Shown piece after piece: positions 17,603 through 46,690 of a stretch of 64,000 nt of DNA (position 1 is the stretch's first letter; each line of letters starts with the position of its first letter). A program made the translations under genes and the position numbers. The notes below the pieces were generated by a model. The model was given only the letters and a program-made list of their open reading frames with translations. It was not told where the DNA came from and searched no databases. Source of the stretch: Escherichia coli. Lineage in GTDB: Bacteria > Pseudomonadota > Gammaproteobacteria > Enterobacterales > Enterobacteriaceae. The stretch lies in the NCBI RefSeq assembly GCF_030384885.1, contig NZ_CP128613.1; one strand, written 5' to 3'.

Positions 17603-17865
17603 ATATTGTCGGATAAAATAAACGCCTCTGTCAGAAATGATGGGGGTGTTTTTATTTTGCGAGCAGCATTCCGGCATTTAAACGTGAATATAGCAGGGGA
17701 AATCAACAGTTATAGAATGGCGTCGGGTGCTTGAGGCTGTCTGGCGTTAAGCATTCGCGAGGTTCCAGATGGACAAAAGCCCCAGGCGATATATCTATCA
17801 ACCTGAGGCTCGCGTTCGAACGTAGCAATTCGGATGTTAGTCTCTTCTTTGCAGGGAGGCAAGAC

Positions 17866-18018
17866 ATGCTGACAAAATATGCCCTTGTGGCAATCATCGT
17901 ACTGTGTTGTACAGTACTGGGATTCACGCTGATGGTAGGCGACTCGTTGTGTGAGTTGAGTATCAGAGAACGTGGTATGGAGTTTAAGGCAGTTCTCGCT
18001 TACGAATCGAAGAAGTAG
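17866..18018 (+). CDS. Hok/Gef-family type I toxin, HokE-like small membrane peptide (50 aa)
   Basis: ATG 17866 after GGGAGG; peptide [50 protein letters not shown] has one TM helix and the conserved Hok C-terminal pattern; 8-bp stem-loop 18024-18045 follows the stop. Confidence 0.75.
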
Positions 18019-18256: not shown

Positions 18257-19690
18257 GTGACTTTCTTTGATTTCTGGGGAAAAACCCGACGTGGCGAGAA
18301 AGAGGGTGGCGACGATTATCACCTTCTTTGCTGGCATTCGCTGGATGTAGCCGCGATAGGCTATTTAATGGTCAAAAACAACTGTTTCGGGCTGGCTGAC
18401 TATTTTCGTCAATTAGGTTTCGCTGACACGGATCAGGCAGCACAATTTTTCGCCTGGTTGTTGTGCTGGCACGATACTGGAAAATTTGCCCGCTCATTTC
18501 AGCAACTTTACCTGCACCCACAACTCAAGGTTCCGGAAGGCGCAAGAAAGAATTACGAAAAGATCTCTCATTCAACGCTGGGTTACTGGTTGTGGCATCA
18601 TTATTTAATTGAATGTGAAGAGTTGCTTCCTTCATCTTCACTCTCTTTGCGCAAACTTAAACGAGTAATAGATATGTGGATGCCCGTGACGACCGGGCAT
18701 CATGGTCGGCCTCCTGACCGTATCGATGAACTGGACAACTTTCTGCCTGAAGACAAAGCTGCCGCACGGGATTTTCTCCTTGAAATCAAGGTACTGTTTC
18801 CGCTCATCGAGATCCCTACATTCTGGGATGATGACGAGGGCGTTGAACTTATAAAACATTTTTCCTGGTATATCTCTGCAACCGTCGTACTCGCAGACTG
18901 GACGGGATCGTCAACGCGGTTTTTTCCACGCGTTGCACAGGCAATGGATATTAAAGATTACTGGCAGAAGGCTTTAGTTCAGGCTCAAAACGCATTAACC
19001 GTCTTTCCCCCAAAAGCAGAAAGCGCGCCTTTCACTGGAATTAATACGCTGTTTCCTTTTATTGAGAACCCAACACCGTTACAGCAAAAGGTGTTGGATC
19101 TGGATATCAGCCAGCCAGGACCACAGTTGTTTATTCTGGAAGATGTGACTGGCGCAGGTAAAACAGAAGCGGCGCTTATCCTGGCGCACAGGTTGATGTC
19201 TGCGGGGAAAGCACAGGGTTTGTTTTTTGGTTTGCCAACAATGGCAACGGCCAATGCCATGTACGATAGGCTGGTAAAAACCTGGCTTGCTTTCTATTCG
19301 CCACAATCCCGCCCCAGCCTGGTGCTGGCACACAGCGCTCGTTCGCTAATGGATCGCTTTAACGCATCGCTGTGGTCTGGTGATTTTGTGGGGTCAGAAG
19401 AACCGGATGAACAAGCGTTCAGTCAGGGATGTGCGGCCTGGTTTGCTGACAGTAACAAGAAGGCGTTGCTGGCTGAAATTGGCGTCGGCACGCTGGATCA
19501 GGCGATGATGGCGGTGATGCCGTTCAAACATAATAATCTGCGGCTTCTGGGGCTGAGTAACAAAATCCTGCTAGCCGATGAGATCCACGCCTGTGACGCT
19601 TATATGTCGTGCATTCTTGAAGGGCTGATCGAGCGGCAGGCGCGTGGCGGAAACAGCGTTATTTTGCTTTCTGCTACGTTGCCGGGGTAG
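18257..19690 (+). pseudogene. cas3: Truncated cas3: N-terminal HD nuclease plus start of helicase domain, about 477 codons of an expected roughly 890
   Basis: GTG start; HD-domain N-terminus (HLLCWHSLDVAA...WHDTGKF), Walker A GAGKT and LLSATLP motifs; ORF stops at 19690 and a cas5e fragment begins 57 bp later. Confidence 0.85.
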
Positions 19691-19746: not shown

Positions 19747-20304
19747 GTGGTTTGCGCCAGCCGTAACCCGCGCTGGGCACGGGATTATCACACGGTCCAG
19801 ATGCCAAAAGAGGTGCGTAAAGCGCGTTATTTCAGCCGTCGCGAAGAGTTGAGCGCCCCTGATCTTCTAAGCGCGATTATCTCCCGGCGCGACTACTACA
19901 CCGATGCCTGGTGGATGGTGGCCGTGGCAACAACAGCTGATGCGCCTTACAGCCTCGAACAGTTGCAGGAAGGTTTACGCCATCCGGTTTTTCCGCTTTA
20001 TCTGGGGCGAAAAAGCCATCCGCTGGCATTACCCCTTGCGCCGTTACTGCTTGAAGGTAACGCGTCTGATGCCTTACGTAACGCATACCAACAGTATCAG
20101 GATCGTTTCCACGAACTGAAAGTCTCACTCCCGAAACTTCAGGATGAATGCTGGTGGGAAGGGGAGCACGATGGCCTGGTCTCGAGCAAAATATTACGCC
20201 GCCGGGATGTTCCTTTAAATCGTCAGCAGTGGCTGTTTGGGGAACGCACCGTCAATCAGGGGCCGTGGCTCAGCAAGGAGGAACCATGTACCTCTCAAGA
20301 ATAA
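19747..20304 (+). pseudogene. cas5: C-terminal fragment of cas5e (casD), N-terminal portion missing
   Basis: Contains RDYHTV and YLGRKSHPL-type Cas5e motifs; ends overlapping the cas6e start as in intact I-E loci; no SD before the first in-frame GTG. Confidence 0.7.
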
Positions 20305-20932
20305 CCTTACATACCGGCCAGCTTTCGCCTGCGCAGTTACTGCATCTGGTGGATCGCGGTGAATATGTGATGCATCAGTGGCTGTGGGATCTTTTTCCTG
20401 GCGGCAAAGAAAGGCAATTTCTTTATCGTCGGGAAGAACTCCAGGGCGCGTTTCGCTTTTTTGTCCTGTCGCAGGAACGCCCGGCGGAAAGTGAAATGTT
20501 CACCATCGAATGCCGGTCATTTGCGCCGGAGCTGCGTACCGGACAATCCCTTTGTTTCAACCTGCGGGCGAATCCAACAGTCTGTAAAGCGGGTAAGCGC
20601 CACGATCTGCTGATGGAGGCGAAACGGCAGGTGAGGGGGCAGGCGGAAGGAAGTGATGTCTGGTTGCATCAACAACAGGCGGCGCTGGGCTGGCTGGCTG
20701 CGCAGGGAGAGAGAAGTGGTTTTACACTGCTGGATACCTCGGTCGATGCCTACCGACAACAGCAACTGCGGCGGGAAAATGCCCGGCAACTGATCCAGTT
20801 CAGTAGCGTGGATTATACGGGGATGCTGACGGTCACCGAGCCAGGGTTATTTCTGCAACGTCTCTGCCTGGGGTATGGCAAAAGCCGGGCGTTCGGCTGT
20901 GGTCTGATGTTAATCAAACCCGGAGCAGAGGC

Positions 20933-20936
<4 letters not shown>
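20286..20936 (+). CDS. cas6e: CRISPR pre-crRNA endoribonuclease Cas6e / CasE (216 aa)
   Basis: ATG 20286 after strong SD aaggagg; N-terminus MYLSRITL typical of CasE; C-terminal glycine-rich loop GYGKSRAFGCGL. Confidence 0.88.
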
Positions 20937-22146
<1,210 letters not shown>

Positions 22147-22242: not shown

Positions 22243-22576
22243 GTGTTCCCCGCGCCAGCGGGGATAAACCGAATACCCAGCGCTATTTCGAGCGCGAGAG
22301 AGTGTGTTCCCCGCGCCAGCGGGGATAAACCGGAAATTTCGGAAATTAAATCCGCTCGCGATCGGTGTTCCCCGCGCCAGCGGGGATAAACCCCATGGCA
22401 GGAAGAGCGGATGATTTAGGGGTAAGTGTTCCCCGCGCCAGCGGGGATAAACCGAAGCCGGATCACATTTTCTTAGCGGAGCTGACGTGTTCCCCGCGCC
22501 AGCGGGGATAAACCGCTCTCGGTTCTGGGGTACTGTTACCCATAACTGAGCTCCCCCGCGTCAGCGGGGGAACTCC
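22243..22576 (+). CRISPR. Type I-E CRISPR array next to cas2: 6 repeats (GTGTTCCCCGCGCCAGCGGGGATAAACCG; third ends in C; last degenerate) and 5 spacers of 32 bp
   Basis: Repeats read at 22243, 22304, 22365, 22426, 22487 and degenerate at 22548. Confidence 0.95.
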
Positions 22577-27726: not shown

Positions 27727-28437
27727 ATGGCAACCACTCATTTGGATGTTTGCGCCGTGGTTCCGGCGGCCGGATTTGGCCGTCGAATGCAAACGGAATG
27801 TCCTAAGCAATATCTTTCAATCGGTAATCAAACCATTCTTGAACACTCGGTGCATGCGCTGCTGGCGCATCCCCGGGTGAAGCATGTCGTCATTGCCATA
27901 AGTCCTGGCGATAGCCGTTTTGCACAACTTCCTCTGGCGAATCATCCGCAAATCACCGTTGTAGATGGCGGTGATGAGCGTGCCGATTCGGTACTGGCAG
28001 GTCTGAAAGCCGCTGGCGATGCGCAGTGGGTATTGGTGCATGACGCCGCTCGTCCTTGTCTGCATCAGGATGACCTCGCGCGATTGTTGGCGTTGAGCGA
28101 AACCAGCCGCACGGGGGGGATCCTCGCCGCACCAGTGCGCGATACGATGAAACGTGCCGAACCGGGCAAAAATGCCATTGCTCATACCGTTGATCGCAAC
28201 GGCTTATGGCACGCGCTGACGCCGCAATTTTTCCCTCGTGAGCTGTTACATGACTGCCTGACGCGCGCTTTAAATGAAGGTGCGACTATTACCGACGAAG
28301 CCTCGGCGCTGGAATATTGCGGATTTCATCCGCAGTTGGTCGAAGGCCGCGCGGATAACATTAAAGTCACGCGCCCGGAAGATTTGGCACTGGCCGAGTT
28401 TTACCTCACCCGAACCATCCATCAGGAGAATACATAA
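27727..28437 (+). CDS. ispD: 2-C-methyl-D-erythritol 4-phosphate cytidylyltransferase (236 aa)
   Basis: Family sequence; synteny. Confidence 0.93.
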
Positions 28438-28916
28438 TGCGAATTGGACACGGTTTTGACGTACACGCCTTTGGCGGTGAAGGCCCAATTATCATTGGTG
28501 GCGTACGCATTCCTTACGAAAAAGGATTGCTGGCGCATTCTGATGGCGACGTGGCGCTCCATGCGTTGACCGATGCATTGCTTGGCGCGGCGGCGCTGGG
28601 GGATATCGGCAAACTGTTCCCGGATACCGATCCGGCATTTAAAGGTGCCGATAGCCGCGAGCTGCTACGCGAAGCCTGGCGTCGTATTCAGGCGAAGGGT
28701 TATACCCTTGGCAACGTCGATGTCACTATCATCGCTCAGGCACCGAAGATGTTGCCGCACATTCCACAAATGCGCGTGTTTATTGCCGAAGATCTCGGCT
28801 GCCATATGGATGATGTTAACGTGAAAGCCACTACTACGGAAAAACTGGGATTTACCGGACGTGGGGAAGGGATTGCCTGTGAAGCGGTGGCGCTACTCAT
28901 TAAGGCAACAAAATGA
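28437..28916 (+). CDS. ispF: 2-C-methyl-D-erythritol 2,4-cyclodiphosphate synthase (159 aa)
   Basis: Family sequence (GHGFDVH); start overlaps the ispD stop. Confidence 0.93.
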
Positions 28917-29942
28917 TTGAGTTTGATAATCTCACTTACCTCCACGGTAAACCGCAAGGTACCGGGCTGCTGAAAGCCAATCCGGAAGACTTTGTGGTGG
29001 TGGAAGATTTGGGCTTTGAGCCTGATGGTGAAGGTGAGCATATTCTGGTTAGAATCCTCAAAAACGGCTGTAATACCCGTTTTGTGGCGGATGCACTGGC
29101 GAAATTCCTGAAAATTCATGCCCGTGAAGTCAGCTTCGCTGGGCAAAAAGATAAACATGCTGTTACGGAACAGTGGTTTTGTGCACGAGTGCCAGGTAAA
29201 GAGATGCCGGATCTCAGTGCTTTTCAACTGGAAGGTTGTCAGGTGCTGGAGTATGCGCGACACAAGCGTAAGTTACGTTTAGGCGCGCTGAAAGGTAACG
29301 CCTTTACCCTGGTTCTGCGCGAAGTGAGCAATCGCGATGACGTTGAACAACGTCTGATCGATATTTGCGTAAAAGGTGTACCGAACTACTTCGGTGCCCA
29401 ACGTTTTGGGATTGGCGGTAGCAACTTGCAGGGCGCGCTGCGCTGGGCGCAAACCAATACTTCGGTGCGCGATCGCAATAAACGGAGTTTTTGGTTGTCG
29501 GCAGCCCGCAGTGCGTTGTTTAATCAGATTGTTGCTGAGCGCCTCAAAAAAGCAGACGTTAATCAAGTTGTTGACGGCGATGCGCTACAATTAGCCGGAC
29601 GTGGTAGCTGGTTTGTTGCAACCACCGAAGAACTGGCGGAATTACAGCGTCGCGTCAACGATAAAGAGCTAATGATAACCGCCGCATTGCCGGGCAGTGG
29701 CGAATGGGGAACTCAGCGTGAAGCGCTGGCATTCGAACAAGCAGCTGTCGCCGCAGAAACTGAATTACAAGCCTTACTGGTGCGCGAAAAAGTTGAAGCC
29801 GCGCGCAGAGCGATGCTGCTGTATCCGCAACAATTAAGCTGGAACTGGTGGGATGACGTCACCGTAGAAATCCGTTTCTGGCTTCCGGCGGGAAGTTTTG
29901 CAACCAGCGTTGTCAGGGAACTTATCAACACAACAGGTGATT

Positions 29943-29962
<20 letters not shown>
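28913..29962 (+). CDS. truD: tRNA pseudouridine(13) synthase (349 aa)
   Basis: Synteny ispF-truD-surE-pcm; full-length ORF. Confidence 0.9.
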
Positions 29963-31324
<1,362 letters not shown>

Positions 31325-31463
31325 AACGTGAGGAAATACCTGGATTTTTCCTGGTTATTTTGCCGCAGGTCAGCGTATCGTGAACATCTTTTCCAGTGTT
31401 CAGTATGGTGCCTTGCACGGTAATTATGTCACTGGTTATTAACCAATTTTTCCTGGGGGATAA

Positions 31464-32603
31464 ATGAGCGCGGGAAGCCCAAAATTCACCGTTCGCCGCA
31501 TTGCGGCTTTGTCACTGGTTTCGCTATGGCTGGCAGGCTGTTCTGACACTTCAAATCCACCGGCACCGGTCAGCTCCGTTAATGGCAATGCGTCTGCAAA
31601 CACCAATTCTGGTATGTTGATTACGCCGCCGCCGAAAATGGGTACGACGTCTACAACGCAGCAACCGCAAATTCAGCCGGTACAGCAGCCACAAATTCAA
31701 TCTGCACAACAACCGCAAATCCAGCCGGTGCAGCCAGTTGCTCAGCCGCCGGTACAGATGGAAAACGGACGCATCGTCTACAACCGTCAGTATGGGAACA
31801 TTCCGAAAGGCAGTTATAGCGGCAGTACATACACCGTGAAAAAAGGCGACACACTTTTCTATATCGCCTGGATTACTGGCAATGATTTCCGTGACCTTGC
31901 TCAGCGCAACAATATTCAGGCGCCATACGCGCTGAATGTAGGTCAGACCTTACAGGTGGGTAATGCTTCCGGTACGCCAATCACTGGCGGAAATGCCATT
32001 ACCCAGGCCGATGCAGCAGAGCAAGGAGTTGTGATCAAGCCTGCACAAAATTCCACCGTTGCTGTTGCGTCGCAACCGACAATTACGTATTCTGAGTCTT
32101 CGGGTGAACAGAGTGCTAACAAAATGTTGCCGAACAACAAGCCAACTGGGACCACGGTCACAGCGCCTGTAACGGTACCAACAGCAAGCACAACCGAGCC
32201 GACTGTCAGCAGTACATCAACCAGTGCGCCTATCTCCACCTGGCGCTGGCCGACTGAGGGCAAAGTGATCGAAACCTTTGGTGCTTCTGAGGGGGGCAAC
32301 AAGGGGATTGATATCGCAGGCAGCAAAGGACAGGCAATTATCGCGACCGCAGATGGCCGCGTTGTTTATGCCGGTAACGCGCTGCGCGGCTACGGTAATC
32401 TGATTATCATCAAACATAATGATGATTACCTGAGTGCCTACGCCCATAACGACACAATGCTGGTCCGGGAACAACAAGAAGTGAAGGCGGGGCAAAAAAT
32501 AGCAACCATGGGTAGCACCGGAACCAGTTCAACACGCTTGCATTTTGAAATTCGTTACAAGGGGAAATCCGTAAACCCGCTGCGTTATTTGCCGCAGCGA
32601 TAA
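31464..32603 (+). CDS. nlpD: Murein hydrolase activator lipoprotein NlpD (379 aa) with LysM and M23 peptidase-like domains and a Q/P-rich tandem repeat
   Basis: Lipobox LAGCS; QQPQIQ repeats at about 31660-31750; C-terminal M23-like region. Confidence 0.93.
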
Positions 32604-32665
32604 ATCGGCGGAACCAGGCTTTTGCTTGAATGTTCCGTCAAGGGATCACGGGTAGGAGCCACCTT

Positions 32666-33658
32666 ATGAGTCAGAATACGCTGAAAGTTCATGATTTAAA
32701 TGAAGATGCGGAATTTGATGAGAACGGAGTTGAGGTTTTTGACGAAAAGGCCTTAGTAGAAGAGGAACCCAGTGATAACGATTTGGCCGAAGAGGAACTG
32801 TTATCGCAAGGGGCCACACAGCGTGTGTTGGACGCGACTCAGCTTTACCTTGGTGAGATTGGTTATTCACCACTGTTAACGGCCGAAGAAGAAGTTTATT
32901 TTGCGCGTCGCGCACTGCGAGGAGATGTTGCCTCCCGCCGCCGGATGATCGAGAGTAACTTGCGTCTGGTGGTAAAAATTGCCCGCCGTTATGGCAATCG
33001 TGGTCTGGCTTTGCTGGATCTTATCGAAGAGGGCAACCTGGGGCTGATCCGCGCGGTAGAGAAGTTTGACCCGGAACGTGGTTTCCGCTTCTCAACATAC
33101 GCAACCTGGTGGATTCGCCAGACGATCGAACGGGCGATTATGAACCAAACCCGTACTATTCGTTTGCCGATTCACATCGTAAAGGAGCTGAACGTTTACC
33201 TGCGAACCGCACGTGAGTTGTCCCATAAGCTGGACCACGAACCAAGTGCGGAAGAGATCGCAGAGCAGCTGGATAAGCCAGTTGATGACGTCAGCCGTAT
33301 GCTTCGTCTTAACGAGCGCATTACCTCGGTAGACACCCCGCTGGGTGGAGATTCCGAAAAAGCGTTGCTGGACATCCTGGCCGATGAAAAAGAAAACGGC
33401 CCGGAAGACACCACGCAAGATGACGATATGAAACAAAGCATCGTCAAATGGCTGTTCGAACTGAACGCCAAGCAGCGTGAAGTGCTGGCACGTCGATTCG
33501 GTTTGCTGGGATACGAAGCGGCAACACTGGAAGATGTAGGTCGTGAAATTGGCCTCACCCGTGAACGTGTTCGCCAGATTCAGGTTGAAGGCCTGCGCCG
33601 TTTGCGCGAAATCCTGCAAACGCAGGGGCTGAATATCGAAGCGCTGTTCCGCGAATAA
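32666..33658 (+). CDS. rpoS: RNA polymerase sigma factor RpoS (330 aa)
   Basis: Start [14 protein letters not shown] at ATG 32666; sigma-70 family regions; codon 33 is GAG. Confidence 0.95.
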
Positions 33659-33673
33659 GTAAGCATCTGTCAG

Positions 33674-33710
33674 AAAGGCCAGTCTCTTATGAGGCTGGCC
33701 TTTTTCTTTT
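33674..33710 (+). terminator. Rho-independent terminator downstream of rpoS
   Basis: Stem aaaggccagtctc / gaggctggccttt followed by a T-run. Confidence 0.8.
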
Positions 33711-33778
33711 GTATGGGGAGTTGGTGTGTTTCGTCGCCTGGATAAGACACGTCAGCGTCCCATCCGGCAATCAACATC

Positions 33779-34186
33779 CTATTTGCTCATCATCTTGCGC
33801 ACCAGCTGCATAAACAGCTCCTGCTCTTCTCCACTCAAACGCCCCAAAAATTCCTCATCCACACTGTCGCCAATCGGTATCGCCGCAGCAAGTACCTTTT
33901 CTCCTTCGGCAGTCAGCCAGACAAAGCGTCGCCGCTTATCAGCGGTGTCATGTTCACGTCTGACTAAGCCACGATTTTCCATTCTTGCCAACATTTCTGC
34001 CAGCGTTGCTTTGGTGCTGACGGCTGCTTCCATCAGTGCCACCTGTTCGATACCAGGTTTATCAGCAATGGCGCGCATCACCGCGTACTGTGGTTTGGTC
34101 AGGTCAGGTAACTCGTGCTGCCAGCGGGCCGTATGCTGCTGAAAAAGCTGTCGTAACTGATGGAACGCTTTATTTCGTAACGCCAT
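33779..34186 (-). CDS. hosA: MarR/SlyA-family transcriptional regulator, HosA-like (135 aa)
   Basis: Winged-helix MarR-like ORF divergent from the decarboxylase operon. Confidence 0.8.
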   Translation of the reverse strand: MALRNKAFHQLRQLFQQHTARWQHELPDLTKPQYAVMRAIADKPGIEQVALMEAAVSTKATLAEMLARMENRGLVRREHDTADKRRRFVWLTAEGEKVLAAAIPIGDSVDEEFLGRLSGEEQELFMQLVRKMMSK

Positions 34187-34332
34187 GTAAACTCCGGGCT
34201 AATTCTCTGTCGCTATCATAGCGGTTTTTCAGTGACGAAGAAGATGTTGTTACTTTTCAATCCTTGCCGCTGTGGAAATGAAGGAGTATGTTAATAATAA
34301 CGTTCGTATACGAACAATTAAGAGAGTAAGCA

Positions 34333-34926
34333 ATGAAACTGATCGTCGGGATGACAGGGGCTACCGGTGCGCCTCTTGGTGTGGCATTACTGCAAGCGCT
34401 GCGGGAGATGCCGAATGTCGAGACTCATCTGGTGATGTCGAAGTGGGCGAAAACCACTATTGAACTGGAAACGCCTTACAGCGCTCGCGATGTTGCCGCC
34501 CTCGCTGACTTCAGCCATAACCCGGCAGATCAGGCTGCGACCATCTCTTCCGGCTCCTTTCGTACCGACGGCATGATCGTTATTCCATGCAGTATGAAAA
34601 CGCTCGCCGGTATCCGCGCTGGTTACGCCGATGGTCTCGTAGGGCGCGCGGCGGACGTCGTGCTCAAAGAAGGCCGCAAACTGGTGCTGGTGCCGCGTGA
34701 AATGCCGCTTAGCACCATCCATCTCGAAAATATGCTCGCACTTTCGCGCATGGGCGTGGCGATGGTGCCGCCGATGCCTGCCTTTTATAACCATCCCGAA
34801 ACGGTAGATGACATTGTCCACCACGTGGTAGCCCGCGTGCTGGATCAATTTGGCCTCGAACATCCTCACGCCAGGCGCTGGCAAGGGTTGCCGCAGGCCC
34901 GGAATTTTTCTCAGGAGAATGAATAA
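34333..34926 (+). CDS. ecdB: UbiX/Pad1-family flavin prenyltransferase (197 aa)
   Basis: N-terminus MKLIVGMTGATGA typical of UbiX. Confidence 0.85.
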   Translation: MKLIVGMTGATGAPLGVALLQALREMPNVETHLVMSKWAKTTIELETPYSARDVAALADFSHNPADQAATISSGSFRTDGMIVIPCSMKTLAGIRAGYADGLVGRAADVVLKEGRKLVLVPREMPLSTIHLENMLALSRMGVAMVPPMPAFYNHPETVDDIVHHVVARVLDQFGLEHPHARRWQGLPQARNFSQENE

Positions 34927-36353
34927 TGGCATTTGATGATTTACGCAGCTTCTTACAGGCGCTTGATGACCACGGCCAGTTACTGAAAATCAGCGAAGAG
35001 GTGAACGCGGAACCGGATCTGGCAGCCGCTGCCAACGCCACCGGGCGTATCGGCGACGGCGCGCCCGCGCTGTGGTTTGATAATATTCGCGGCTTTATCG
35101 ATGCCCGCGTTGCAATGAACACCATCGGTTCTTGGCAGAACCACGCAATTTCTCTCGGTCTGCCGCCAAACACCCCGGTTAAAAAACAGATTGATGAGTT
35201 TATCCGCCGCTGGGATAACTTCCCGATAGCCCCGGAGCGCCGTGCGAATCCTGCCTGGGCGCAGAACACCGTCGATGGCGACGAGATCAATTTGTTCAAT
35301 ATCCTGCCGCTGTTTCGTTTAAACGATGGCGATGGCGGTTTCTATCTCGACAAAGCGTGCGTGGTTTCCCGCGATCCGCTCGATCCGGATAACTTCGGCA
35401 AGCAGAACGTCGGCATCTATCGCATGGAAGTGAAGGGTAAGCGTAAGCTCGGCCTGCAACCGGTGCCGATGCACGATATCGCCCTGCATCTGCATAAAGC
35501 GGAAGAACGTGGTGAAGATTTGCCAATTGCCATCACGCTGGGTAACGATCCGATCATCACCCTGATGGGCGCCACCCCGCTGAAATATGATCAATCGGAG
35601 TACGAAATGGCGGGCGCGCTACGCGAAAGCCCGTACCCGATCGCCACCGCCCCGCTGACCGGTTTTGATGTGCCGTGGGGTTCAGAAGTGATCCTCGAAG
35701 GGGTTATCGAAAGCCGCAAACGTGAAATCGAAGGGCCGTTCGGTGAGTTTACCGGGCACTACTCCGGTGGGCGCAACATGACCGTAGTGCGCATCGATAA
35801 AGTCTCTTACCGCACCAAACCGATTTTTGAATCGCTCTATCTCGGCATGCCGTGGACCGAAATCGACTACCTGATGGGGCCTGCCACCTGCGTGCCGCTT
35901 TACCAGCAGTTGAAAGCCGAGTTCCCGGAAGTGCAGGCGGTGAACGCTATGTACACCCACGGCCTGCTGGCGATTATCTCCACCAAAAAACGCTATGGCG
36001 GCTTTGCCCGCGCAGTGGGCCTGCGTGCGATGACCACGCCGCACGGTCTGGGTTATGTGAAGATGGTGATTATGGTCGATGAAGACGTTGACCCGTTCAA
36101 CCTGCCGCAGGTGATGTGGGCGCTCTCGTCGAAAGTGAACCCGGCAGGCGATCTGGTGCAACTGCCAAATATGTCCGTGCTGGAACTCGACCCAGGCTCA
36201 AGCCCGGCGGGGATCACCGATAAGCTGATTATCGACGCCACCACGCCTGTCGCCCCGGACAACCGTGGTCACTACAGCCAGCCGGTGGTGGACTTACCGG
36301 AAACCAAAGCCTGGGCTGAAAAACTGACCGCTATGCTGGCCGCACGTAAATAA
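34926..36353 (+). CDS. ecdC: UbiD-family (prFMN-dependent) aromatic acid decarboxylase (475 aa)
   Basis: UbiD-like length and sequence; translationally coupled to the UbiX-like gene. Confidence 0.85.
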   Translation: MAFDDLRSFLQALDDHGQLLKISEEVNAEPDLAAAANATGRIGDGAPALWFDNIRGFIDARVAMNTIGSWQNHAISLGLPPNTPVKKQIDEFIRRWDNFPIAPERRANPAWAQNTVDGDEINLFNILPLFRLNDGDGGFYLDKACVVSRDPLDPDNFGKQNVGIYRMEVKGKRKLGLQPVPMHDIALHLHKAEERGEDLPIAITLGNDPIITLMGATPLKYDQSEYEMAGALRESPYPIATAPLTGFDVPWGSEVILEGVIESRKREIEGPFGEFTGHYSGGRNMTVVRIDKVSYRTKPIFESLYLGMPWTEIDYLMGPATCVPLYQQLKAEFPEVQAVNAMYTHGLLAIISTKKRYGGFARAVGLRAMTTPHGLGYVKMVIMVDEDVDPFNLPQVMWALSSKVNPAGDLVQLPNMSVLELDPGSSPAGITDKLIIDATTPVAPDNRGHYSQPVVDLPETKAWAEKLTAMLAARK

Positions 36354-36363
36354 GGAGAACAAG

Positions 36364-36600
36364 ATGATTTGTCCACGTTGTGCCGATGAACAGATTGAAG
36401 TGATGGCGAAATCGCCGGTGAAAAATGTCTGGACGGTCTACCAGTGCCAGCATTGCCTTTATACATGGCGCGATACTGAACCGCTACGTCGCACCAGCCG
36501 CGAACATTATCCCGAAGCCTTCCGTATGACGCAGAAAGATATTGATGACGCACCGATGGTGCCGAGCATTCCGCCGCTGCTGGCGGAAGGTAAGCGCTAA
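36364..36600 (+). CDS. ecdD: Small zinc-ribbon-like subunit of the decarboxylase (78 aa)
   Basis: CPRC...CQHC cysteine pairs; third gene of a three-gene operon. Confidence 0.75.
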   Translation: MICPRCADEQIEVMAKSPVKNVWTVYQCQHCLYTWRDTEPLRRTSREHYPEAFRMTQKDIDDAPMVPSIPPLLAEGKR

Positions 36601-36602
36601 AT

Positions 36603-36630
36603 AAAAGGTCCGATGCCCATCGGACCTTTT
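36603..36630. terminator. Bidirectional rho-independent terminator between ecdD and ygbN
   Basis: Perfect hairpin ggtccgatg / catcggacc flanked by an A-run upstream and T-run downstream. Confidence 0.8.
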
Positions 36631-36638
36631 TATTAAGG

Positions 36639-38003
36639 TCAAATTACCGCCCATACGCACCAGGTAATTAAGAATCCGGTAAAACCGAGAATGGTCGTTA
36701 ACACTGTCCAGGTTTTCAGACCGTCTGCTACCGACAACCCCAGATATTTGGTCACAATCCAGAACCCTGAGTCATTAATATGTGACGCGCCAAGCCCACC
36801 AAAGCAGGCTGCCAGCGTCACCAATACGCACTGAATCGGATTCAATCCCATCACAGCTTCTGAGAGTAACCCGCCGGTTGTCAGGATTGCTACGGTTGCT
36901 GACCCCTGCGATGCACGCAGCGCCAGTGAAATAATAAATGCGGCTGGTAACAGAGGCAGGTCAATCATTTGTAGCATGTTGGCAAGGGCTTTGCCGACGC
37001 CCGATTCCACCAGCACTTTGCCAAATACCCCTCCAGCACCAGTAACCAAAATCACTACCGCCGCAGTGGGAAGGGCTGAGCCCATAATGTCGCTGGTGTG
37101 TTGTAAGCTCCAGCCGCGACGTAAAGCCAATAACCAGAATGCCAGCACCAGCGCAATCATTAGAGCTACCATTGGTGAGCCGATCAGCTGTAGCGTACCA
37201 AGCAGGGGATGCGAAGGCGGCATCAGTGTTGCGGAAACCGTACCCGCCATGATAATCGCGATAGGAATAACAATTAGCGAGGTGACCAGCGCGACGCCCG
37301 GTGGATTTATTTTATCGCTTAATTTTGTCGCGCCTTCCTCACTGGCCGGAGCCAGTTGCATCTGTTCCAGTACTTCCACCGACATCGCATATTGGCGCTT
37401 ATTGATTATTTTCGCTGCAAAGTAGCCAACAATCCCTACGGGAATAGAAATCGCAATACCGATGATGGTTAGCCAGCCGATGTCTGCGTGGAGTAACCCC
37501 GCTGCGGCGACAGGGCCTGGATGCGGCGGTACCGCCACATGAACAGTTAGCATGATTCCAGCGACAGGCAGGCCAAATTTGAGTGGCGATATTTTGGCAA
37601 CCTTGGCAAAACCGTAAATGATTGGCGCAAGAATAATAAAGCCGACATCAAAGAAGACGGGAATACCGAGGAAGAACGCTGCCAGAGTCAGCGCAGCGAT
37701 AGTTCGTTTGTCACCTAACTTGCGACTGAAATAATTAGCCAGTGACTCTGCACCACCAGAGTGTTCGATCATACGCCCCAGCATAGCGCCCAGACCAATA
37801 ATAATAGTGACGGAACCAAGCACACCGCCCATCCCGGCGATCATCACTTTACCCACTTCGCCCGCCGGTATACCCGCCGCAAGTGCGACTAACAGGCTGA
37901 CGAGGAGCAGAGCAACGAATGGTTGTACCTTTGCCTTGATGACCAGCAGCAACAGCATGATTACGCCAGTTAACGCAATGCATAACAATGTAATTGTGGA
38001 CAT
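36639..38003 (-). CDS. ygbN: GntP-family permease (454 aa)
   Basis: Multi-TM ORF; synteny with ygbMLKJ. Confidence 0.88.
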   Translation of the reverse strand: MSTITLLCIALTGVIMLLLLVIKAKVQPFVALLLVSLLVALAAGIPAGEVGKVMIAGMGGVLGSVTIIIGLGAMLGRMIEHSGGAESLANYFSRKLGDKRTIAALTLAAFFLGIPVFFDVGFIILAPIIYGFAKVAKISPLKFGLPVAGIMLTVHVAVPPHPGPVAAAGLLHADIGWLTIIGIAISIPVGIVGYFAAKIINKRQYAMSVEVLEQMQLAPASEEGATKLSDKINPPGVALVTSLIVIPIAIIMAGTVSATLMPPSHPLLGTLQLIGSPMVALMIALVLAFWLLALRRGWSLQHTSDIMGSALPTAAVVILVTGAGGVFGKVLVESGVGKALANMLQMIDLPLLPAAFIISLALRASQGSATVAILTTGGLLSEAVMGLNPIQCVLVTLAACFGGLGASHINDSGFWIVTKYLGLSVADGLKTWTVLTTILGFTGFLITWCVWAVI

Positions 38004-38091
38004 GGGAAACCCTGTCTGAAAGTTATAGTTAACCTACCCCATCCGTAGATGGGGGGATGTATGGGTACGTTGTAATTAGGGATTTAACGAA

Positions 38092-38868
38092 TTAGCGCCA
38101 GGCGTCAAACCAGCCAAGCCCTTCTTCGGTGAGGCCACGAGGTTTATATTCACAACCGATCCAGCCCTGATATCCCACCTCATCGAACAGGCGGAACAGC
38201 CACGGATAGTTGATTTCTCCATCGTCCGGTTCATGTCGATCAGGTAGTCCGGCAATTTGTACGTGCGCATATTTCCCGGCGTAATCGCGGATTAAATGTG
38301 TCAGGTTGCCATCTACTTTTTGCGCATGGAAAGTATCTAGTTGAATAAACACGTTATCTCGCGCAACCTCTTCAACAATAGCCAGTGCCTGATACTGGCT
38401 GGAGAAGAGATAATGAGGCTTAACGCCGGGGCTGAGTGCTTCAACCAATATTCGCTTGCCGTGTGGCGCAAAGCGGTCGGCAGCGTAGCGGAGATTATCA
38501 ATAAATACTGCCCGGTACCGTTCAGCATCTTCGCCAGCGGGCACGACGCCTGCCATCACATGGACTTGTTCACAATTGAGCGCCAATGCATATTCCAGTG
38601 CCAGGTCGATGTCTGCGCGTGCTTCGTGCTCACGTCCAGGAAGGGCGGATAATCCCCATTCTCCCGCATTAATATCTCCGGGAGCGGTATTGAACAGCGC
38701 CAGTGTCAGATGGTTTTGCACCAGTTGCTTTTGGATTTGCAGGGGGGAGTAGTCATAGGGAAACAGAAATTCCACAGCATCGAACCCGGCTTTTCGCGCT
38801 GCGGCGAAGCGTTCAATAAAAGGCACTTCGGTGAACATCATGGATAAATTAGCTGCAAAACGAGGCAT
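38092..38868 (-). CDS. ygbM: Hydroxypyruvate-isomerase-like TIM-barrel protein, putative 2-oxo-tetronate isomerase (258 aa)
   Basis: Xylose-isomerase-like TIM barrel family; synteny. Confidence 0.85.
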
Positions 38869-38872
38869 TGCA

Positions 38873-39511
38873 TTAACTCCTTAATTCCGCAATTTCACCT
38901 GCGGTCAGATAACGGATCGGGCGGTCACCGAGAATAAAAATCAGCTTTGCCGTTTCCTCCAGCTCTTCCATATTGTTGGCGGCTTCTTGCAGGCTTTCAC
39001 CGCAAACCACTGGGCCATGATTTGCCAGTAAAAAAGCCTGATTGTCTGCTGCCAGTTCCGCCAGATCCTGTGCGATGCGTTTATCGCCCGGTCGGTAATA
39101 GGGCACCAGCGGGACATTACCCATCCGCATCACCACGTATGGTGTGAACGGCCGAATAACGTTATTGCTGTCCAGCCCTTCCAGGCAGGAAAGCGCCGTC
39201 GACCACGTACTGTGCAAATGCACTACCGCTTTACAGCGCGGATTGTTGCGATACAGCGCCAGATGAAAGAGCACCTCTTTCGAGGGTTTGTCACCACTTA
39301 ACCATTCGCCATCCACGGCGACTTTGGAAAGCCGCTGCGGATCGAGATTGCCCAGGCATGAACCTGTCGGTGTCGCCAGTAAATTCCCATCAGGTAAAAG
39401 CAGCGACAGATTGCCAGCCGAACCGGTTGCATAGCCGCGCTGAAAGAATGAACTGGCAATCCGCGTCATCTCCTCTCGCAAAGACTGCTCTACTTTTGCG
39501 AAATCGCTCAT
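38873..39511 (-). CDS. ygbL: Class II aldolase/adducin-family protein, putative 3-oxo-tetronate 4-phosphate decarboxylase (212 aa)
   Basis: Class II aldolase family; synteny. Confidence 0.85.
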
Positions 39512-40770
39512 GATAAAAACTCTCTTTGGGCTCGTGAAAAAAAGGCTTCATCACCGAAGTTGCCAGATTTAAGGGCGAGTGAGACAGGCTTATCCAGTGC
39601 GTTTACCCACGGCACGCCGGGGGAAATGGTTGGGCCAATATGAAACCCTTTTATTCCCAGGCTCTGTGTGACTACGCCGGAGGTCTCACCGCCTGCGACA
39701 ATAAAGCGTGTCACGCCTTCCGCTGCTAACTGCGCCGCTAGTTGAGAAAACAGTGTTTCTACTGCCTGACTGGCTTTTTGTGCACCGTATTGCTGTTGAA
39801 TTGCTGCCAATGCGTCAGTGCTGGCGGTGGCAAAAACCAGTGGAGCAAGTACACTTTCCTGGCCCAGAACCCACTCTGCCAGCTCGTGTGCATAAGCGGC
39901 CAGAGTTTCAATTGAGAGGCAGCGTGCAACATCAACTTCACGGGCTGGTGCAATTTGACGGTAATGTGCCACCTGGCGGTTGGTCATTTGAGAGCATGAA
40001 CCGGAGAGCACTACGCCGCGCCCTGCGAGCGGACGCCCTGCTTCGCGAGCCTGGTTACCATTTTCTTGCGCCCACTGCCGGGCCAGGCCAATTGCCAGAC
40101 CAGAACCGCCCGTTACCAGTGGGGCATCGCGCAAGGCTTCCCCCTGAATTTCCAGATGGTGTTCGGTCAGCGCATCAAGCACCGCGTAGCGATAGCCCTC
40201 TTGCTGTAAGCGAGCCAGCTCCTGACGAACGGCTTTCACACCTTGTTCGAAAACATGTGCTGAAACGACGCCGCAGCGCCCTGTGGATTGCGCTTCAACC
40301 AGACGGGGAAGATAGCTGTCGGTCATGGGATTTACCGGGTGATGGCGCATCCCGGATTCGGCCAGCAGTTGATTCATTACGAACAAATACCCCTGATAAA
40401 CCGTACGTCCGTTGACCGGCAGGGCCGGAGAGAAGACCGTAAACGGCGTGTCGAGAGCATCCATTAATGCATCGGTAACCGGGCCGATATTACCTTTCGC
40501 CGTACTGTCGAAAGTAGAGCAGTATTTGAAATAGATCTGTTTGCAACCTTGCTGTTGCAACCAGCTCAGAGCCGCCAGCGATTGCTGTGTGGCTTCAACC
40601 ACCGGACAGGAGCGCGTTTTCAGGCTGATCACCAGTGCGTCGATTGCTTCCGGCATTTTACCTGTTGGAACACCGTTAATTTGTACCGTTGGTAGACCGT
40701 TTTCCACCAGAAAACTGGCGATATCCGTCGCGCCGGTAAAATCATCGGCGATAACGCCAATCTTGATCAT
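39508..40770 (-). CDS. ygbK: DUF1537-family four-carbon acid-sugar kinase (420 aa)
   Basis: N-terminus MIKIGVIADDFTGATD typical of the family. Confidence 0.85.
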   Translation of the reverse strand: MIKIGVIADDFTGATDIASFLVENGLPTVQINGVPTGKMPEAIDALVISLKTRSCPVVEATQQSLAALSWLQQQGCKQIYFKYCSTFDSTAKGNIGPVTDALMDALDTPFTVFSPALPVNGRTVYQGYLFVMNQLLAESGMRHHPVNPMTDSYLPRLVEAQSTGRCGVVSAHVFEQGVKAVRQELARLQQEGYRYAVLDALTEHHLEIQGEALRDAPLVTGGSGLAIGLARQWAQENGNQAREAGRPLAGRGVVLSGSCSQMTNRQVAHYRQIAPAREVDVARCLSIETLAAYAHELAEWVLGQESVLAPLVFATASTDALAAIQQQYGAQKASQAVETLFSQLAAQLAAEGVTRFIVAGGETSGVVTQSLGIKGFHIGPTISPGVPWVNALDKPVSLALKSGNFGDEAFFSRAQREFLS

Positions 40771-41675
40771 GATTTCGCTCCCGGTAGAGTGATGCCAGAG
40801 AAAATCTTGATAACTGCGCTATCGTCTTCTTTCCCGTAACCCGCGTTACTGGCGCTGGTGAACATATTCAATGCTGTTGAGGCCAATGGCAGCGGAAAGT
40901 GCAGGGCTTTGGCTGTATCGGCAACCAGACCAAGATCCTTAACAAAAATATCGACGGCTGAATGCGGGGTGTAATCGCCATCCACCACATGACGCATCCG
41001 GTTTTCGAACATCCAGGAATTTCCGGCGGCATTGGTCACGACGTCATACATCACATCCAGCGGGATCCCCGCACGGGCTGCAAGTGCCATCGCTTCGGCT
41101 CCGGCAGCAATATGTACGCCCGCTAACAACTGGTGAATAATTTTTACGGTCGAACCTAGTCCCGGTTCTGCACCTATGCGATAAACTTTTCCGGCAACGG
41201 CTTCCAGCACGGGTGCCAGTCGTTCAAAGGCAATATCGCTACCGGAGGCCATGACAGTCATTTCACCGTTAGCGGCTTTTACTGCACCACCAGAAACTGG
41301 CGCATCCAGCATTTCCAGATCGAATCCAGCCAGAGCGGTAGCAATTTCTTGCGCATCAGCACTGGCGATAGTGGAAGAAACCATTACTGCCGTACCGGGT
41401 TTCAGATGTTGTGCAACGCCTGTTTCACCAAACAGCACCTGTTTAACCTGGGCCGCATTGACCACCAGCACCAGCAGAGCGTCCAGTTTTTCGGCAAACG
41501 TCGCGGCGTTATCAGAAACCCCGCAAGCACCTGCCTCTTTCAACGTAGCGCAGGCATTGCTGTTTAGGTCTGCGCCCCAGGTAGAAAGACCTGCGCGGAC
41601 ACATGACAGTGCTGCTCCCATTCCCATTGACCCTAAGCCAACGATACCGACATGAAACTCAGATCCCGTTTTCAT
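40767..41675 (-). CDS. ygbJ: NAD-dependent 3-hydroxyisobutyrate-dehydrogenase-like enzyme, putative L-threonate dehydrogenase (302 aa)
   Basis: N-terminal GxGxMG Rossmann motif (VGIVGLGSMG). Confidence 0.85.
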   Translation of the reverse strand: MKTGSEFHVGIVGLGSMGMGAALSCVRAGLSTWGADLNSNACATLKEAGACGVSDNAATFAEKLDALLVLVVNAAQVKQVLFGETGVAQHLKPGTAVMVSSTIASADAQEIATALAGFDLEMLDAPVSGGAVKAANGEMTVMASGSDIAFERLAPVLEAVAGKVYRIGAEPGLGSTVKIIHQLLAGVHIAAGAEAMALAARAGIPLDVMYDVVTNAAGNSWMFENRMRHVVDGDYTPHSAVDIFVKDLGLVADTAKALHFPLPLASTALNMFTSASNAGYGKEDDSAVIKIFSGITLPGAKS

Positions 41676-41870
41676 CTGCTCTCCTTGTTAATTTAAGTGA
41701 TATTTTGTTTGATAATGTGAATATAAGCGCTGGAAGATAACGATATGGTGAGCTGATTCACAAAAATTAACATTGTGTGTTATTTTATGTGAACTAAGCG
41801 TTAGTTGCGCCGCGCACGTTTCGCAGGCAAATAGCGTAGAATGTCAGCAGGACAAAGGAAGGAGCAAAAG

Positions 41871-42638
41871 TTGATACCCGTAGAGCGTCGCCAAATCATC
41901 CTTGAGATGGTAGCTGAAAAAGGCATTGTCAGTATTGCTGAACTAACGGACAGAATGAATGTGTCACATATGACCATTCGTCGGGATTTACAAAAACTGG
42001 AGCAGCAGGGAGCCGTTGTGCTGGTGTCCGGAGGCGTCCAGTCTCCGGGACGCGTGGCGCATGAACCTTCTCATCAGGTAAAAACTGCGCTGGCAATGAC
42101 GCAAAAAGCGGCTATTGGCAAGCTGGCGGCAAGTCTTGTTCAGCCGGGAAGTTGTATCTATCTGGATGCGGGAACGACCACGCTAGCGATAGCACAGCAT
42201 CTGATTCACATGGAGTCACTGACTGTGGTCACAAACGATTTCGTTATTGCGGACTACTTGCTCGACAACAGTAATTGCACAATTATTCACACTGGCGGTG
42301 CAGTATGTCGGGAAAACCGTTCCTGTGTCGGGGAAGCCGCTGCGACCATGCTGCGCAGCCTGATGATTGATCAGGCTTTTATTTCTGCATCGTCATGGAG
42401 TGTGCGGGGGATTTCTACGCCAGCGGAAGATAAAGTCACGGTGAAACGGGCGATTGCCAGTGCCAGCCGCCAGCGAGTTTTGGTCTGTGATGCGACGAAA
42501 TATGGTCAGGTGGCGACATGGCTGGCGTTACCATTAAGCGAGTTTGATCAGATTATTACAGACGACGGTTTGCCGGAGAGTGCCAGTCGCGCGCTGGCGA
42601 AGCAGGATCTCTCTTTGCTGGTAGCGAAAAATGAATAA
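41871..42638 (+). CDS. ygbI: DeoR-family transcriptional regulator (255 aa)
   Basis: Probable TTG start at 41871 with aaggaaggag SD; DeoR HTH N-terminus. Confidence 0.8.
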   Translation: MIPVERRQIILEMVAEKGIVSIAELTDRMNVSHMTIRRDLQKLEQQGAVVLVSGGVQSPGRVAHEPSHQVKTALAMTQKAAIGKLAASLVQPGSCIYLDAGTTTLAIAQHLIHMESLTVVTNDFVIADYLLDNSNCTIIHTGGAVCRENRSCVGEAAATMLRSLMIDQAFISASSWSVRGISTPAEDKVTVKRAIASASRQRVLVCDATKYGQVATWLALPLSEFDQIITDDGLPESASRALAKQDLSLLVAKNE

Positions 42639-42688
42639 TGGCCTGCAATAACACCGGGTTACTCATGCTTCACAGAAGAAGCATGAGA

Positions 42689-43345
42689 CTACTTTATTTT
42701 ATAAAATGACAGGCGCCCACTTTCCGGCGAACCGGTATCAATATAAACCTGGTTGGCGAATGTCTGGATGTTATCAAACATCATATGTCCGAAGATAAAG
42801 CAGTCGGCGCCGTTTATTTCCTGTAACTCGCCTTTGAGCGATTTCAGTACGCGATCAACAGGCCAGAGCAATTCTCTCTCCGCTATTTCTTTGCCAAAGA
42901 GATATTCATTCCCCGGATAATCTGCATGCGCGATGACATATTTTATTATGTCGTTAGTGATTTAAACAATATGCGGAAGATTATGAAAACGTAGCAACAG
43001 GTCTATTGCTTCTTTTTGTTCCGTATCACTTAACTCAAAGAACCAGTCGCCACCACTGGCAAGCCACATATTGCCATCGCCGGTCGCGAACGCATCCAAT
43101 GCCATCGCTTCATGGTTGCCTTTGACCGATGTAAACCAGGGCTGGTTTAGCAGGCGCAGCACGTTAAGACTCTCCGGCCCACGATCAATATTATCGCCGA
43201 CAGAAATAAGTAAGTCGGTTTCAGGGCAAAAAGAGAGTTGATGTAAGCGGGATTGTAATAATTGATAGTCACCATGAATATCACCAACGGCCCATATATG
43301 GCGATAGTGATGGGCATTAATTTTTTGATAGCGTGTAGATGGCAT
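42689..43345 (-). pseudogene. pphB: Serine/threonine protein phosphatase 2 (lambda-phosphatase-like PPP family) interrupted by an in-frame TAA at 42962-42964
   Basis: Track ORFs 42962..43345 and 42689..42871 are in the same frame; N-part carries GDIHG, GDNIDRG and GNHE motifs, C-part carries the remaining histidine motifs; total 219 codons. Confidence 0.8.
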
Positions 43346-43450
43346 GGTTTTACCCTGTAAAATAAGATTTCCTATTATACAGGGTATTTTTATTTGATTC
43401 GTCAGTTGTCGTTAATATTCCCGATAGCAAAAAACTATCGGGAATTGTTA

Positions 43451-46012
43451 TTACACCAGACTCTTCAAGCGATAAATCCATTCCAGCGCCTGACGCGGGG
43501 TAAGTGAATCCGGGTCAAGATTTTCCAGCGCTTCGACCGCTGGCGACGTTTCTTCTGGCACTGAAAGCAAAGACATTTGCGTACCATCCACTTGCGTAGC
43601 GGCGGCGTTCGGCGAAATGCTTTCCAGCTCACGCAGTTTTTGCCGTGCGCGCTTAATAACCTCTTTTGGTACGCCCGCCAGAGCTGCAACCGCCAGACCG
43701 TAGCTTTTGCTCGCCGCGCCATCCTGCACGCTGTGCATAAAGGCAATGGTGTCGCCGTGCTCCAGCGCATCAAGATGCACGTTGGCGACGCCTTCCATTT
43801 TCTCCGGCAGTTGAGTCAGTTCAAAGTAGTGGGTAGCAAACAACGTCAACGCTTTAATCTTATTCGCCAGATTTTCAGCGCACGCCCATGCCAGCGACAG
43901 ACCATCGTAAGTGGACGTTCCGCGCCCAATCTCATCCATCAACACCAGGCTGTACTCCGTGGCGTTATGCAGAATATTGGCGGTTTCGGTCATCTCCACC
44001 ATAAAGGTTGAACGCCCGGATGCCAGATCGTCAGCCGCGCCCACACGGGTAAAGATACGGTCAATCGGGCCAATCTCGACTTTTTGCGCCGGTACGTAGC
44101 TGCCGATATAGGCCATCAGCGCAATCAGTGCGGTCTGGCGCATATAGGTACTTTTACCGCCCATGTTCGGACCGGTGATGATCAACATGCGACGCTGCGG
44201 CGACAGGTTCAGCGGGTTAGCGATAAACGGCTCATTCAGTACCTGTTCAACCACCGGATGGCGACCTTCGGTAATGCGAATGCCCGGTTTATCAATGAAG
44301 GTCGGGCAGGTGTAGTTCAGGGTATAGGCCCGTTCCGCCAGGTTTACCAGTACGTCGAGTTCTGCCAGTGCGCTCGCGCTCTGTTGCAACGCTTCCAGAT
44401 GCGGCAACAGCAGGTCGAACAACTCTTCATAAAGCTGTTTTTCCAGTGCCAGCGCTTTACCTTTCGAGGTGAGTACTTTGTCTTCATACTCTTTTAGCTC
44501 TGGAATAATGTAGCGTTCGGCGTTTTTCAGCGTCTGGCGACGCATATAGTTGATGGGTGCGAGATGGCTTTGTCCACGGCTAATCTGAATGTAATAACCA
44601 TGCACCGCGTTAAAGCCAACTTTCAGCGTGTCCAGGCCGGTACGTTCACGCTCGCGAACTTCCAGACGCTCCAGATAATCTGTCGCGCCGTCAGCCAGCG
44701 CTCGCCACTCATCCAGCTCTTCGTTATAGCCTGATGCGATAACACCACCGTCGCGTACCAGCACCGGCGGTGTGTCGATGATTGCTCGCTCCAGCAGATC
44801 GCGCAGCTCTGCAAACTCGCCCATTTTCTCACGCAGCGCCTGTACCGGTGCACTAGCGACATTTTCTAACTGCGCACGCAGCTCCGGCAGTTGCTGGAAA
44901 GCGTGACGCATACGGGCCAGATCGCGTGGGCGGGCAGTCCGTAAAGCCAGACGTGCCAGAATACGTTCCAGGTCGCCGACCTGACGCAGTACCGGCTGCA
45001 GCTCAGCGGTGAAATCCTGCAATGCGCCAATAGTTTGCTGGCGCTCAAGCAACACGCGGGTATCGCGCACTGGCATATGCAGCCAGCGTTTCAGCATTCG
45101 ACTCCCCATCGGCGTTACAGTGCAATCGAGCACGGAAGCCAGCGTGTTTTCCGCACCGCCCGCCAGGTTCTGGGTAATTTCCAGGTTACGACGCGTCGCG
45201 GCATCCATAATGATGCTGTCCTGCTCACGTTCCATAGTGATAGAACGAATATGCGGCAGAGTCGTACGTTGAGTATCTTTCGCATACTGCAACAGACAAC
45301 CGGCGGCACAAAGTCCGCGCGGCGCGTTCTCGACGCCAAAACCGACCAGATCGCGAGTGCCAAATTGTAGATTCAACTGCTGGCGCGCGGTGTCGATTTC
45401 AAACTCCCACAGCGGGCGACGGCGCAAGCCGCGACGACCTTCAATCAGCGACATTTCAGCAAAATCTTCTGCATACAGCAGTTCCGCCGGATTAGTGCGT
45501 TGCAGTTCTGCCGCCATCGTTTCGCGGTCAGCCGGTTCACTCAGGCGAAAACGACCGGAACTGATATCCAGCGTCGCGTAGCCGAAACCTTTACTGTCCT
45601 GCCAGATAGCCGCCAGCAGGTTGTCCTGACGCTCCTGCAACAGCGCTTCATCGCTGATGGTGCCCGGCGTAACGATACGCACAACTTTGCGCTCAACCGG
45701 ACCTTTGCTGGTCGCCGGATCGCCAATTTGTTCGCAGATGGCAACGGACTCGCCCTGATTCACCAGTTTGGCGAGGTAGTTTTCCACCGCATGGTATGGA
45801 ATCCCCGCCATCGGGATCGGCTCTCCCGCTGAAGCGCCGCGTTTGGTCAGTGAAATATCCAGCAGTTGTGACGCACGTTTTGCGTCGTCATAAAACAGTT
45901 CGTAAAAGTCACCCATCCGGTAGAACAGCAGGATCTCGGGATGCTGGGCTTTCAGCTTGAGATACTGCTGCATCATTGGCGTGTGGGCGTCGAAATTTTC
46001 TATTGCACTCAT
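43451..46012 (-). CDS. mutS: DNA mismatch repair protein MutS (853 aa)
   Basis: Walker [10 protein letters not shown]; full-length. Confidence 0.97.
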
Positions 46013-46298
46013 GGAGTTATGTCCGGTTCCCTGATTTTAAATGGGGTGTGATGATTTTTATTTTCGTTGTAATCACATAAGGCGCACATGATACCGGAGT
46101 TAATCATTTCAGGGGAAGAAGCGAACGGCGAGTTCTTGATGTCGGTTCCGCGAAAAATGCTGCTTTGCAGCTTTTGCGTGATGCTTATGAAGCAAGTACG
46201 CAAAATTGTATCAGTTGGCGAACCCTTCTTCTTCAGAGACATAGTCCCCTTTAAAATTAAGTTGTAATATAAATGCACCTTAAGAGTATGGAGGCAGC

Positions 46299-46652
46299 AT
46301 GTCCGGCAAGCGTACCTCTCGTGAAAAACTGACGATTAAAAAAATGATCGATCTTTATCAAGCGAAATGCCCGCAGGCGTCAGCAGAGCCGGAGCATTAC
46401 GAAGCGCTGTTTGCCTACGCGCAAAAACGGCTGGATAAATGTGTGTTCGGCGAAGACAAACCCGCCTGTAAGCAGTGCCCGGTGCACTGTTACCAGTCTG
46501 CAAAGCGTGAAGAGATGAAACAGATTATGCGTTGGGCCGGGCCGCGCATGCTGTGGCGTCATCCGATCCTAACCGTACGCCATCTCATTGATGACAAGCG
46601 TCCGGTGCCGGAGTTGCCAGAAAAATATCGCCCGAAAAAACCTCGTGAATAG
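46299..46652 (+). CDS. ygbA: Nitrous-oxide-stimulated-promoter family Cys-rich protein (117 aa)
   Basis: Conserved position divergent from mutS; CxxC motifs. Confidence 0.8.
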   Translation: MSGKRTSREKLTIKKMIDLYQAKCPQASAEPEHYEALFAYAQKRLDKCVFGEDKPACKQCPVHCYQSAKREEMKQIMRWAGPRMLWRHPILTVRHLIDDKRPVPELPEKYRPKKPRE

Positions 46653-46690
46653 TATACCGGACAGGCAGATCTGTCCGGCACCTCATGCAG

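Follow-up and report, generated by a model that had tools for sequence, protein, structure and literature searches.

An intact rpoS gene with a GAG codon at position 33 in a non-K-12 Escherichia background

The stretch of DNA that was analysed, referred to here at its full length of 64,000 nucleotides as the window, carries rpoS, the gene for sigma-S (sigma-38). The gene order around it is surE, pcm, nlpD, rpoS, as in MG1655, and the conserved enterobacterial synteny is thus present. The features of the locus are collected in Table 1. The gene starts at the ATG at 32666, with an AGGAG Shine-Dalgarno sequence 7 nt upstream (32654-32658), and translation from this codon ends at the TAA stop at 33656-33658. 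A mechanically compiled list of open reading frames also offered a 342-aa frame beginning at an in-frame upstream ATG, at 32630. We rejected this codon as the rpoS start, because the alignments with MG1655 rpoS and with the RpoS equivalog model each begin at the ATG at 32666, which the AGGAG motif precedes. Likewise, positions 1-329 of the PRK05657 model correspond to RpoS residues 1-329, supporting the start at 32666. The gene is annotated as rpoS in 5,400+ genomes.

Table 1. Features at and around rpoS, with positions in the window
Feature	Position	Strand	Remarks
nlpD, murein hydrolase activator, conserved upstream neighbour of rpoS	31464..32603	+	NCBIfam PRK10871, 677.7 bits
Region matching the long rpoS 5' leader, promoter inside nlpD	32099..32665	+
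rpoS CDS (sigma-S / sigma-38)	32666..33658	+	330 sense codons and TAA; from translation, equivalog models and Pfam
rpoS codon 33, GAG (Glu)	32762..32764	+	CAG in MG1655, TAG in W3110
GTG codon 54, presumed internal secondary translation start	32825..32827	+	Placed from the delta1-53 numbering
Terminator-like hairpin and T-run directly after rpoS	33672..33705	+
2,895-bp segment without K-12 counterpart	33705..36599		Followed by ygbN
MarR/SlyA-family regulator, in the 2,895-bp segment	33779-34186	-
Non-oxidative hydroxyarylic acid decarboxylase subunits B, C and D	34333-36600	+

Codons 32-34 of the gene read GAA GAG GAA and encode E-E-E, within the local peptide ...KALV-E32-E33-E34-PSDN.... As reference we used MG1655 rpoS (b2741, NP_417221.1, UniProt RPOS_ECOLI, NC_000913.3 2866559-2867551 complement), in a comparison that was free of gaps. 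An earlier note on this DNA had read codon 33 as GAG in an intact frame of 330 codons and had proposed an alignment with reference alleles as the check. The alignment bears out both readings: the length equals that of MG1655 RpoS, the codon numbering is that of the K-12 reference, and the K-12 allele is absent. The two genes differ at 21 nucleotides, and 20 of these differences are synonymous. The sole replacement lies at nucleotide 97, where GAG (Glu) stands here and CAG (Gln) in MG1655. Neither of the laboratory K-12 codons, TAG or CAG, is found at 32762-32764, and the remainder of the K-12 haplotype, namely the other rpoS sites and a ygbN gene adjoining rpoS, is not found either.

The protein scores 604.6 bits against the NCBIfam equivalog model NF004207/PRK05657 (cut-off 394) and 480.7 bits against TIGR02394 rpoS_proteo (cut-off 378.7), and its scores against the RpoD and RpoH models fall under the cut-offs of those models. 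Pfam places the sigma-70 regions at residues 56-88 (Sigma70_r1_2), 94-163 (r2), 174-248 (r3) and 262-315 (r4), and the protein is without a long region 1.1. Scoring above curated equivalog cut-offs, the gene product is classed as RpoS, a group 2 member of the sigma-70 family. Lys173, which we take to be the residue needed for RssB-dependent turnover by ClpXP, is present, and it is invariant in the alignment that we examined. The TIGR02394 alignment begins at residue 48, Pfam region 1.2 at residue 56, and the more distant RpoS sequences in the PDB (7f0r, 7vf9) align from residue 52 only. All three begin past residue 33, which places this residue in a poorly conserved, acidic N-terminal tail upstream of region 1.2. 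At least 1,000 contigs carry the exact protein, under the name 'MULTISPECIES RpoS [Enterobacteriaceae]'.

Variation at codon 33 is well documented. Some K-12 strains carry an amber codon there and others Glu, Tyr or Gln, so that TAG, CAG, TAT and GAG are all on record among K-12 stocks (PMC2700278). GAG was found in 10/10 VTEC strains examined (PMC2700278), and passages of the same paper that cite Atlung 2002 and Subbarayan & Sarkar 2004 describe it as common among natural non-K-12 isolates. Most ECOR strains have the Q33E form, which 'has similar functional activity' (PMC3074542); it is also reported from some K-12 strains (PMC3074542, PMC2700278). The location of residue 33 in the tail is consistent with this reported equivalence of Glu and Gln. 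The change from Q33 to amber recurs under glucose limitation (PMC2763269), and in passages citing Subbarayan & Sarkar 2004 and Rajkumari & Gowrishankar 2002 that paper describes how an internal start gives rise to a delta1-53 sigma-S with partial activity. More broadly, defects in rpoS are reported for 20-30% of natural isolates, and strains with an identical rpoS coding sequence show very different RpoS levels (PMC3074542). The codon-33 polymorphism, its history in K-12 and the functional neutrality of Glu and Gln are already known, and have been described since 2002.

To place the allele among sequenced strains we searched 5,426 complete E. coli genomes with three 41-mers that differ at the central base only. 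With the variant centred in the 41-mer, the 28-base megablast seed cannot form across a mismatch. The GAG form was found in 4,849 of the 5,426 genomes (89%), and chance is no issue for codon 33 because the exact 41-mer around the codon recurs at this frequency. CAG was found in 175 genomes, and among the matches listed 60/60 are K-12 or laboratory derivatives (MG1655, BW25113, MC4100, DH10B). TAG was found in 121, which among the matches listed are mostly K-12 or laboratory stocks (W3110, EMG2, WG1, J53, NCM3722, HMS174); BLR(DE3), a K-12-hybrid B strain, carries it too. The census leaves 281 genomes unclassified, through flank variants, other alleles, deletions or lack of an rpoS match, and 12 of them have no rpoS match whatsoever. 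These counts agree with published work (PMC2700278, PMC3074542) on the point, raised in the earlier note, that laboratory K-12 lineages carry amber or Gln at position 33.

Glu33 extends beyond E. coli to E. albertii, to Leclercia and to further members of the same 90% protein cluster, while Gln33 appears in K-12-type sequences only, according to the cluster look-up and the PDB sequences. The RpoS forms in the PDB include Q33 (6kj6) and E33 (5ipl). A third PDB sequence (6omf), with the changes V24A and V31S, has E33 as well; presumably it is that of Salmonella. On this distribution, the occurrence of Glu33 in E. albertii, in Leclercia and in a second PDB RpoS sequence marks it as the ancestral state.

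The surroundings of the gene set the window apart from K-12. Homology with K-12 ends at the rpoS terminator, with the blastn breakpoint against MG1655 at 33704, and MG1655 is matched at 98.0% identity over 28217-33704 and at 96.4% over 36600-48107. The regulator gene in the intervening segment is probably the HosA-type gene described in EPEC. The arrangement of the segment is 'pattern IV' of the ygbN(o454)-nlpD region, whereas K-12 has 'pattern II' (PMC4209514); within the polymorphic mutS-rpoS region, the segment is one of the known mosaic variants. In contrast to MG1655, E. coli 2013C-4282 (NZ_CP027579.1, human stool, USA) is 99.98% identical over 64 kb, with 13 substitutions and one deletion separating it from the window. 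The next best complete genome reaches 98.3% over a 25-kb query (20000-44999), and typical E. coli about 96-97%. The rpoS haplotype is unusual, with identity of at least 99% in 18 of 5,414 genomes and of 95-99% in the others. Strain 2013C-4282, whose complete genome is stx1-positive, is placed in Escherichia cryptic clade I, and EC42405, one of the rpoS matches at or above 99%, is likewise assigned to clade I (PMC10100065). A marker gene specific to clade I has been described (PMC10100065), and the region covered here is not one in which it would be expected. The source is a natural non-K-12 Escherichia and, judged by these matches, most likely belongs to cryptic clade I, as a relative of an stx1-positive human isolate.

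GAG by itself cannot exclude K-12, because the literature reports some K-12 stocks with this codon. The non-K-12 background with which the earlier note called the codon and the intact frame consistent is nonetheless well founded: it is secure without codon 33, because of the 20 synonymous differences in rpoS, the 2,895-bp segment, the flank identities and the match to clade I 2013C-4282.

Several other loci in the window deserve mention. Beside the clade I affinity of the window, the most notable of these side observations concerns the type I-E cas operon, which relative to 2013C-4282 lacks 4,629 bp at the junction 19680/19681. The missing stretch takes in the 3' part of cas3, casA, casB, cas7e and the 5' part of cas5e, and leaves a remnant cas3 ORF (18257-19690) and cas6e-cas1e-cas2e (20148-22146). 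The junction is clean, with a 2-bp (TG) microhomology. None of the 5,426 complete E. coli genomes contains a 101-nt probe across it intact, and the annotation of 2013C-4282 already shows a frameshift in cas3. Either the interference complex of type I-E has been lost specifically in this strain, or the deletion is an artefact of assembly. The ygc/cys/cas region is flanked by two type I-E CRISPR arrays, at 276-1219 (16 repeat copies) and 22243-22515 (5 copies), with a 29-nt repeat and 61-nt spacing, and cas1e and cas2e, the genes for adaptation, are kept in spite of the deletion of the Cascade genes. Between cysH and cas3, at 17725-18018, there is a toxin-antitoxin locus of the hok/sok type, with a match to Rfam sok (RF01794) of 104.5 bits at 17725-17881 and a Hok/Gef CDS at about 17866-18018. 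At about 60702-61429, between hycI and ascB, the annotation of the matching strain has a HigB-family toxin gene paired with that of an HTH antitoxin. Nearer to rpoS, nlpD contains an imperfect 24-nt tandem repeat of 3.2 copies (31659-31734) that encodes a Gln/Pro-rich linker (QQPQIQPV...). The RefSeq start of nlpD in 2013C-4282 is later (31509) than that of the K-12-type 379-aa ORF (31464).

Synthesis of sigma-S is under the control of a long leader and of Hfq-dependent small RNAs. For the leader we assumed the 567-nt length of K-12. Over these 567 nt before the rpoS ATG there are six substitutions relative to MG1655, at -517, -440, -384, -294, -183 and -162, and the identity of the leader to its K-12 counterpart is about 99%. 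Its last 160 nt, which we take to include the inhibitory hairpin and the region of pairing with small RNAs, are the same as in K-12, as is the Shine-Dalgarno sequence. A scan of the whole window against Rfam at gathering thresholds gave no match overlapping rpoS, and its only match was the sok antitoxin RNA at 17725-17881. A scan of 31900-34300 for the sigma-70 promoter consensus returned no sites, and it is uninformative on the known rpoS promoter inside nlpD.

Within the gene, GTG54 would be the start that yields delta1-53 sigma-S in amber-33 K-12 strains. Codons 48 and 49, 10-18 nt upstream of it within the stretch 32807-32827, read CAA GGG here and CAG GGA in K-12, and both changes are synonymous. 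They fall where a Shine-Dalgarno-like element of the internal start would be expected and might alter the strength of that start in either direction, which we regard as very unlikely. If it were so, early nonsense mutants of a clade I-type lineage would retain different amounts of delta1-53 sigma-S than those of K-12, and the fitness landscape of the well-known polymorphism of rpoS loss and regain would be altered.

We consider it nearly certain that the gene is the ordinary, ancestral, intact Glu33 allele of rpoS, with the conserved nlpD-rpoS arrangement around it, and that the genome is a non-K-12 one near-identical to clade I 2013C-4282. The peculiarity lies with K-12, and consists of an amber codon (TAG) of laboratory lineages and its pseudo-revertants (CAG, and TAT or GAG in some stocks). 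The protein is identical to a widespread Enterobacteriaceae RpoS and its reading frame is intact, and in this sense the allele may be called wild-type, in agreement with the earlier note. The Shine-Dalgarno sequence, the proximal leader, K173 and all sigma regions are intact on inspection, and sigma-S is predicted to be made and to work normally in the source strain. It would bind core RNA polymerase and direct the general stress and stationary-phase regulon, its translation being controlled by the leader and small RNAs and its turnover by RssB and ClpXP, as in other E. coli.

An intact rpoS ORF is no guarantee of normal sigma-S activity, because RpoS levels vary at identical coding sequence (PMC3074542). 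The activity of sigma-S could be attenuated or altered through the leader or through rssB, crl, hfq or ppGpp, in which case 'wild-type' would overstate the phenotype. The very different levels reported between strains with the same RpoS sequence (PMC3074542) speak for such an effect, as do the six leader substitutions relative to K-12. Yet the protein equals the commonest natural RpoS, neither the Shine-Dalgarno sequence nor the final 160 nt of the leader differs from K-12, and the window holds no evidence for attenuation. On balance we find attenuation unlikely.

The remaining alternatives concern the codon itself. The window could derive from K-12, with the amber at codon 33 reverted to GAG, as the GAG reported for some K-12 stocks would allow (PMC2700278, PMC3074542). 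Such a derivative would not be expected to show 20 synonymous rpoS differences from MG1655, identity to MG1655 of just 98.0% upstream and 96.4% downstream of the breakpoint, 2,895 bp between rpoS and ygbN that K-12 lacks, and 99.98% identity over 64 kb to a clade I genome. The divergence of the flanks and of the synonymous sites already refutes reversion in a K-12 stock, whose probability we put as negligible. An error of sequencing or assembly at codon 33 is even harder to credit, and we give it practically no weight. Nothing specific favours it beyond the differences from 2013C-4282, one of them synonymous and in rpoS (33511) and 13 across the window; against it, 2013C-4282 has GAG too and the identical 41-mer is present in 4,849 genomes. 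The ordinary ancestral Glu33 allele thus remains our reading of the gene. Its finding matters only as a marker of quality and provenance, pointing to a natural non-K-12 Escherichia with an intact general-stress sigma factor. The Glu33 allele opens no new biological question; it is a textbook polymorphism in its common state.

Compared with known systems, the closest counterpart is RpoS of 2013C-4282 (WP_000081550.1), a 100% identical protein whose gene has the single synonymous difference noted above. Natural Glu33 RpoS in general (WP_000081550.1; the E33 sequence of 5ipl) shares the length, the domains and the nlpD-rpoS synteny. Relative to most E. coli, rpoS of the window is about 2% diverged at synonymous sites, which fits a cryptic clade I origin. 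RpoS of MG1655, the Gln33 allele, has 330 aa with the same start and numbering and is identical at 329/330 residues; in MG1655, however, ygbN follows rpoS directly, whereas here the 2.9-kb MarR/decarboxylase segment lies between them. The K-12 rpoS(Am33) allele (W3110, EMG2, WG1, J53 and others) is the same gene, with TAG at the same codon position. There, the full-length protein needs a suppressor, failing which a partially active delta1-53 sigma-S is made from the internal start (PMC2763269). Unlike K-12 Am33, rpoS of the window has a sense codon at position 33 and needs neither a suppressor nor the internal start.
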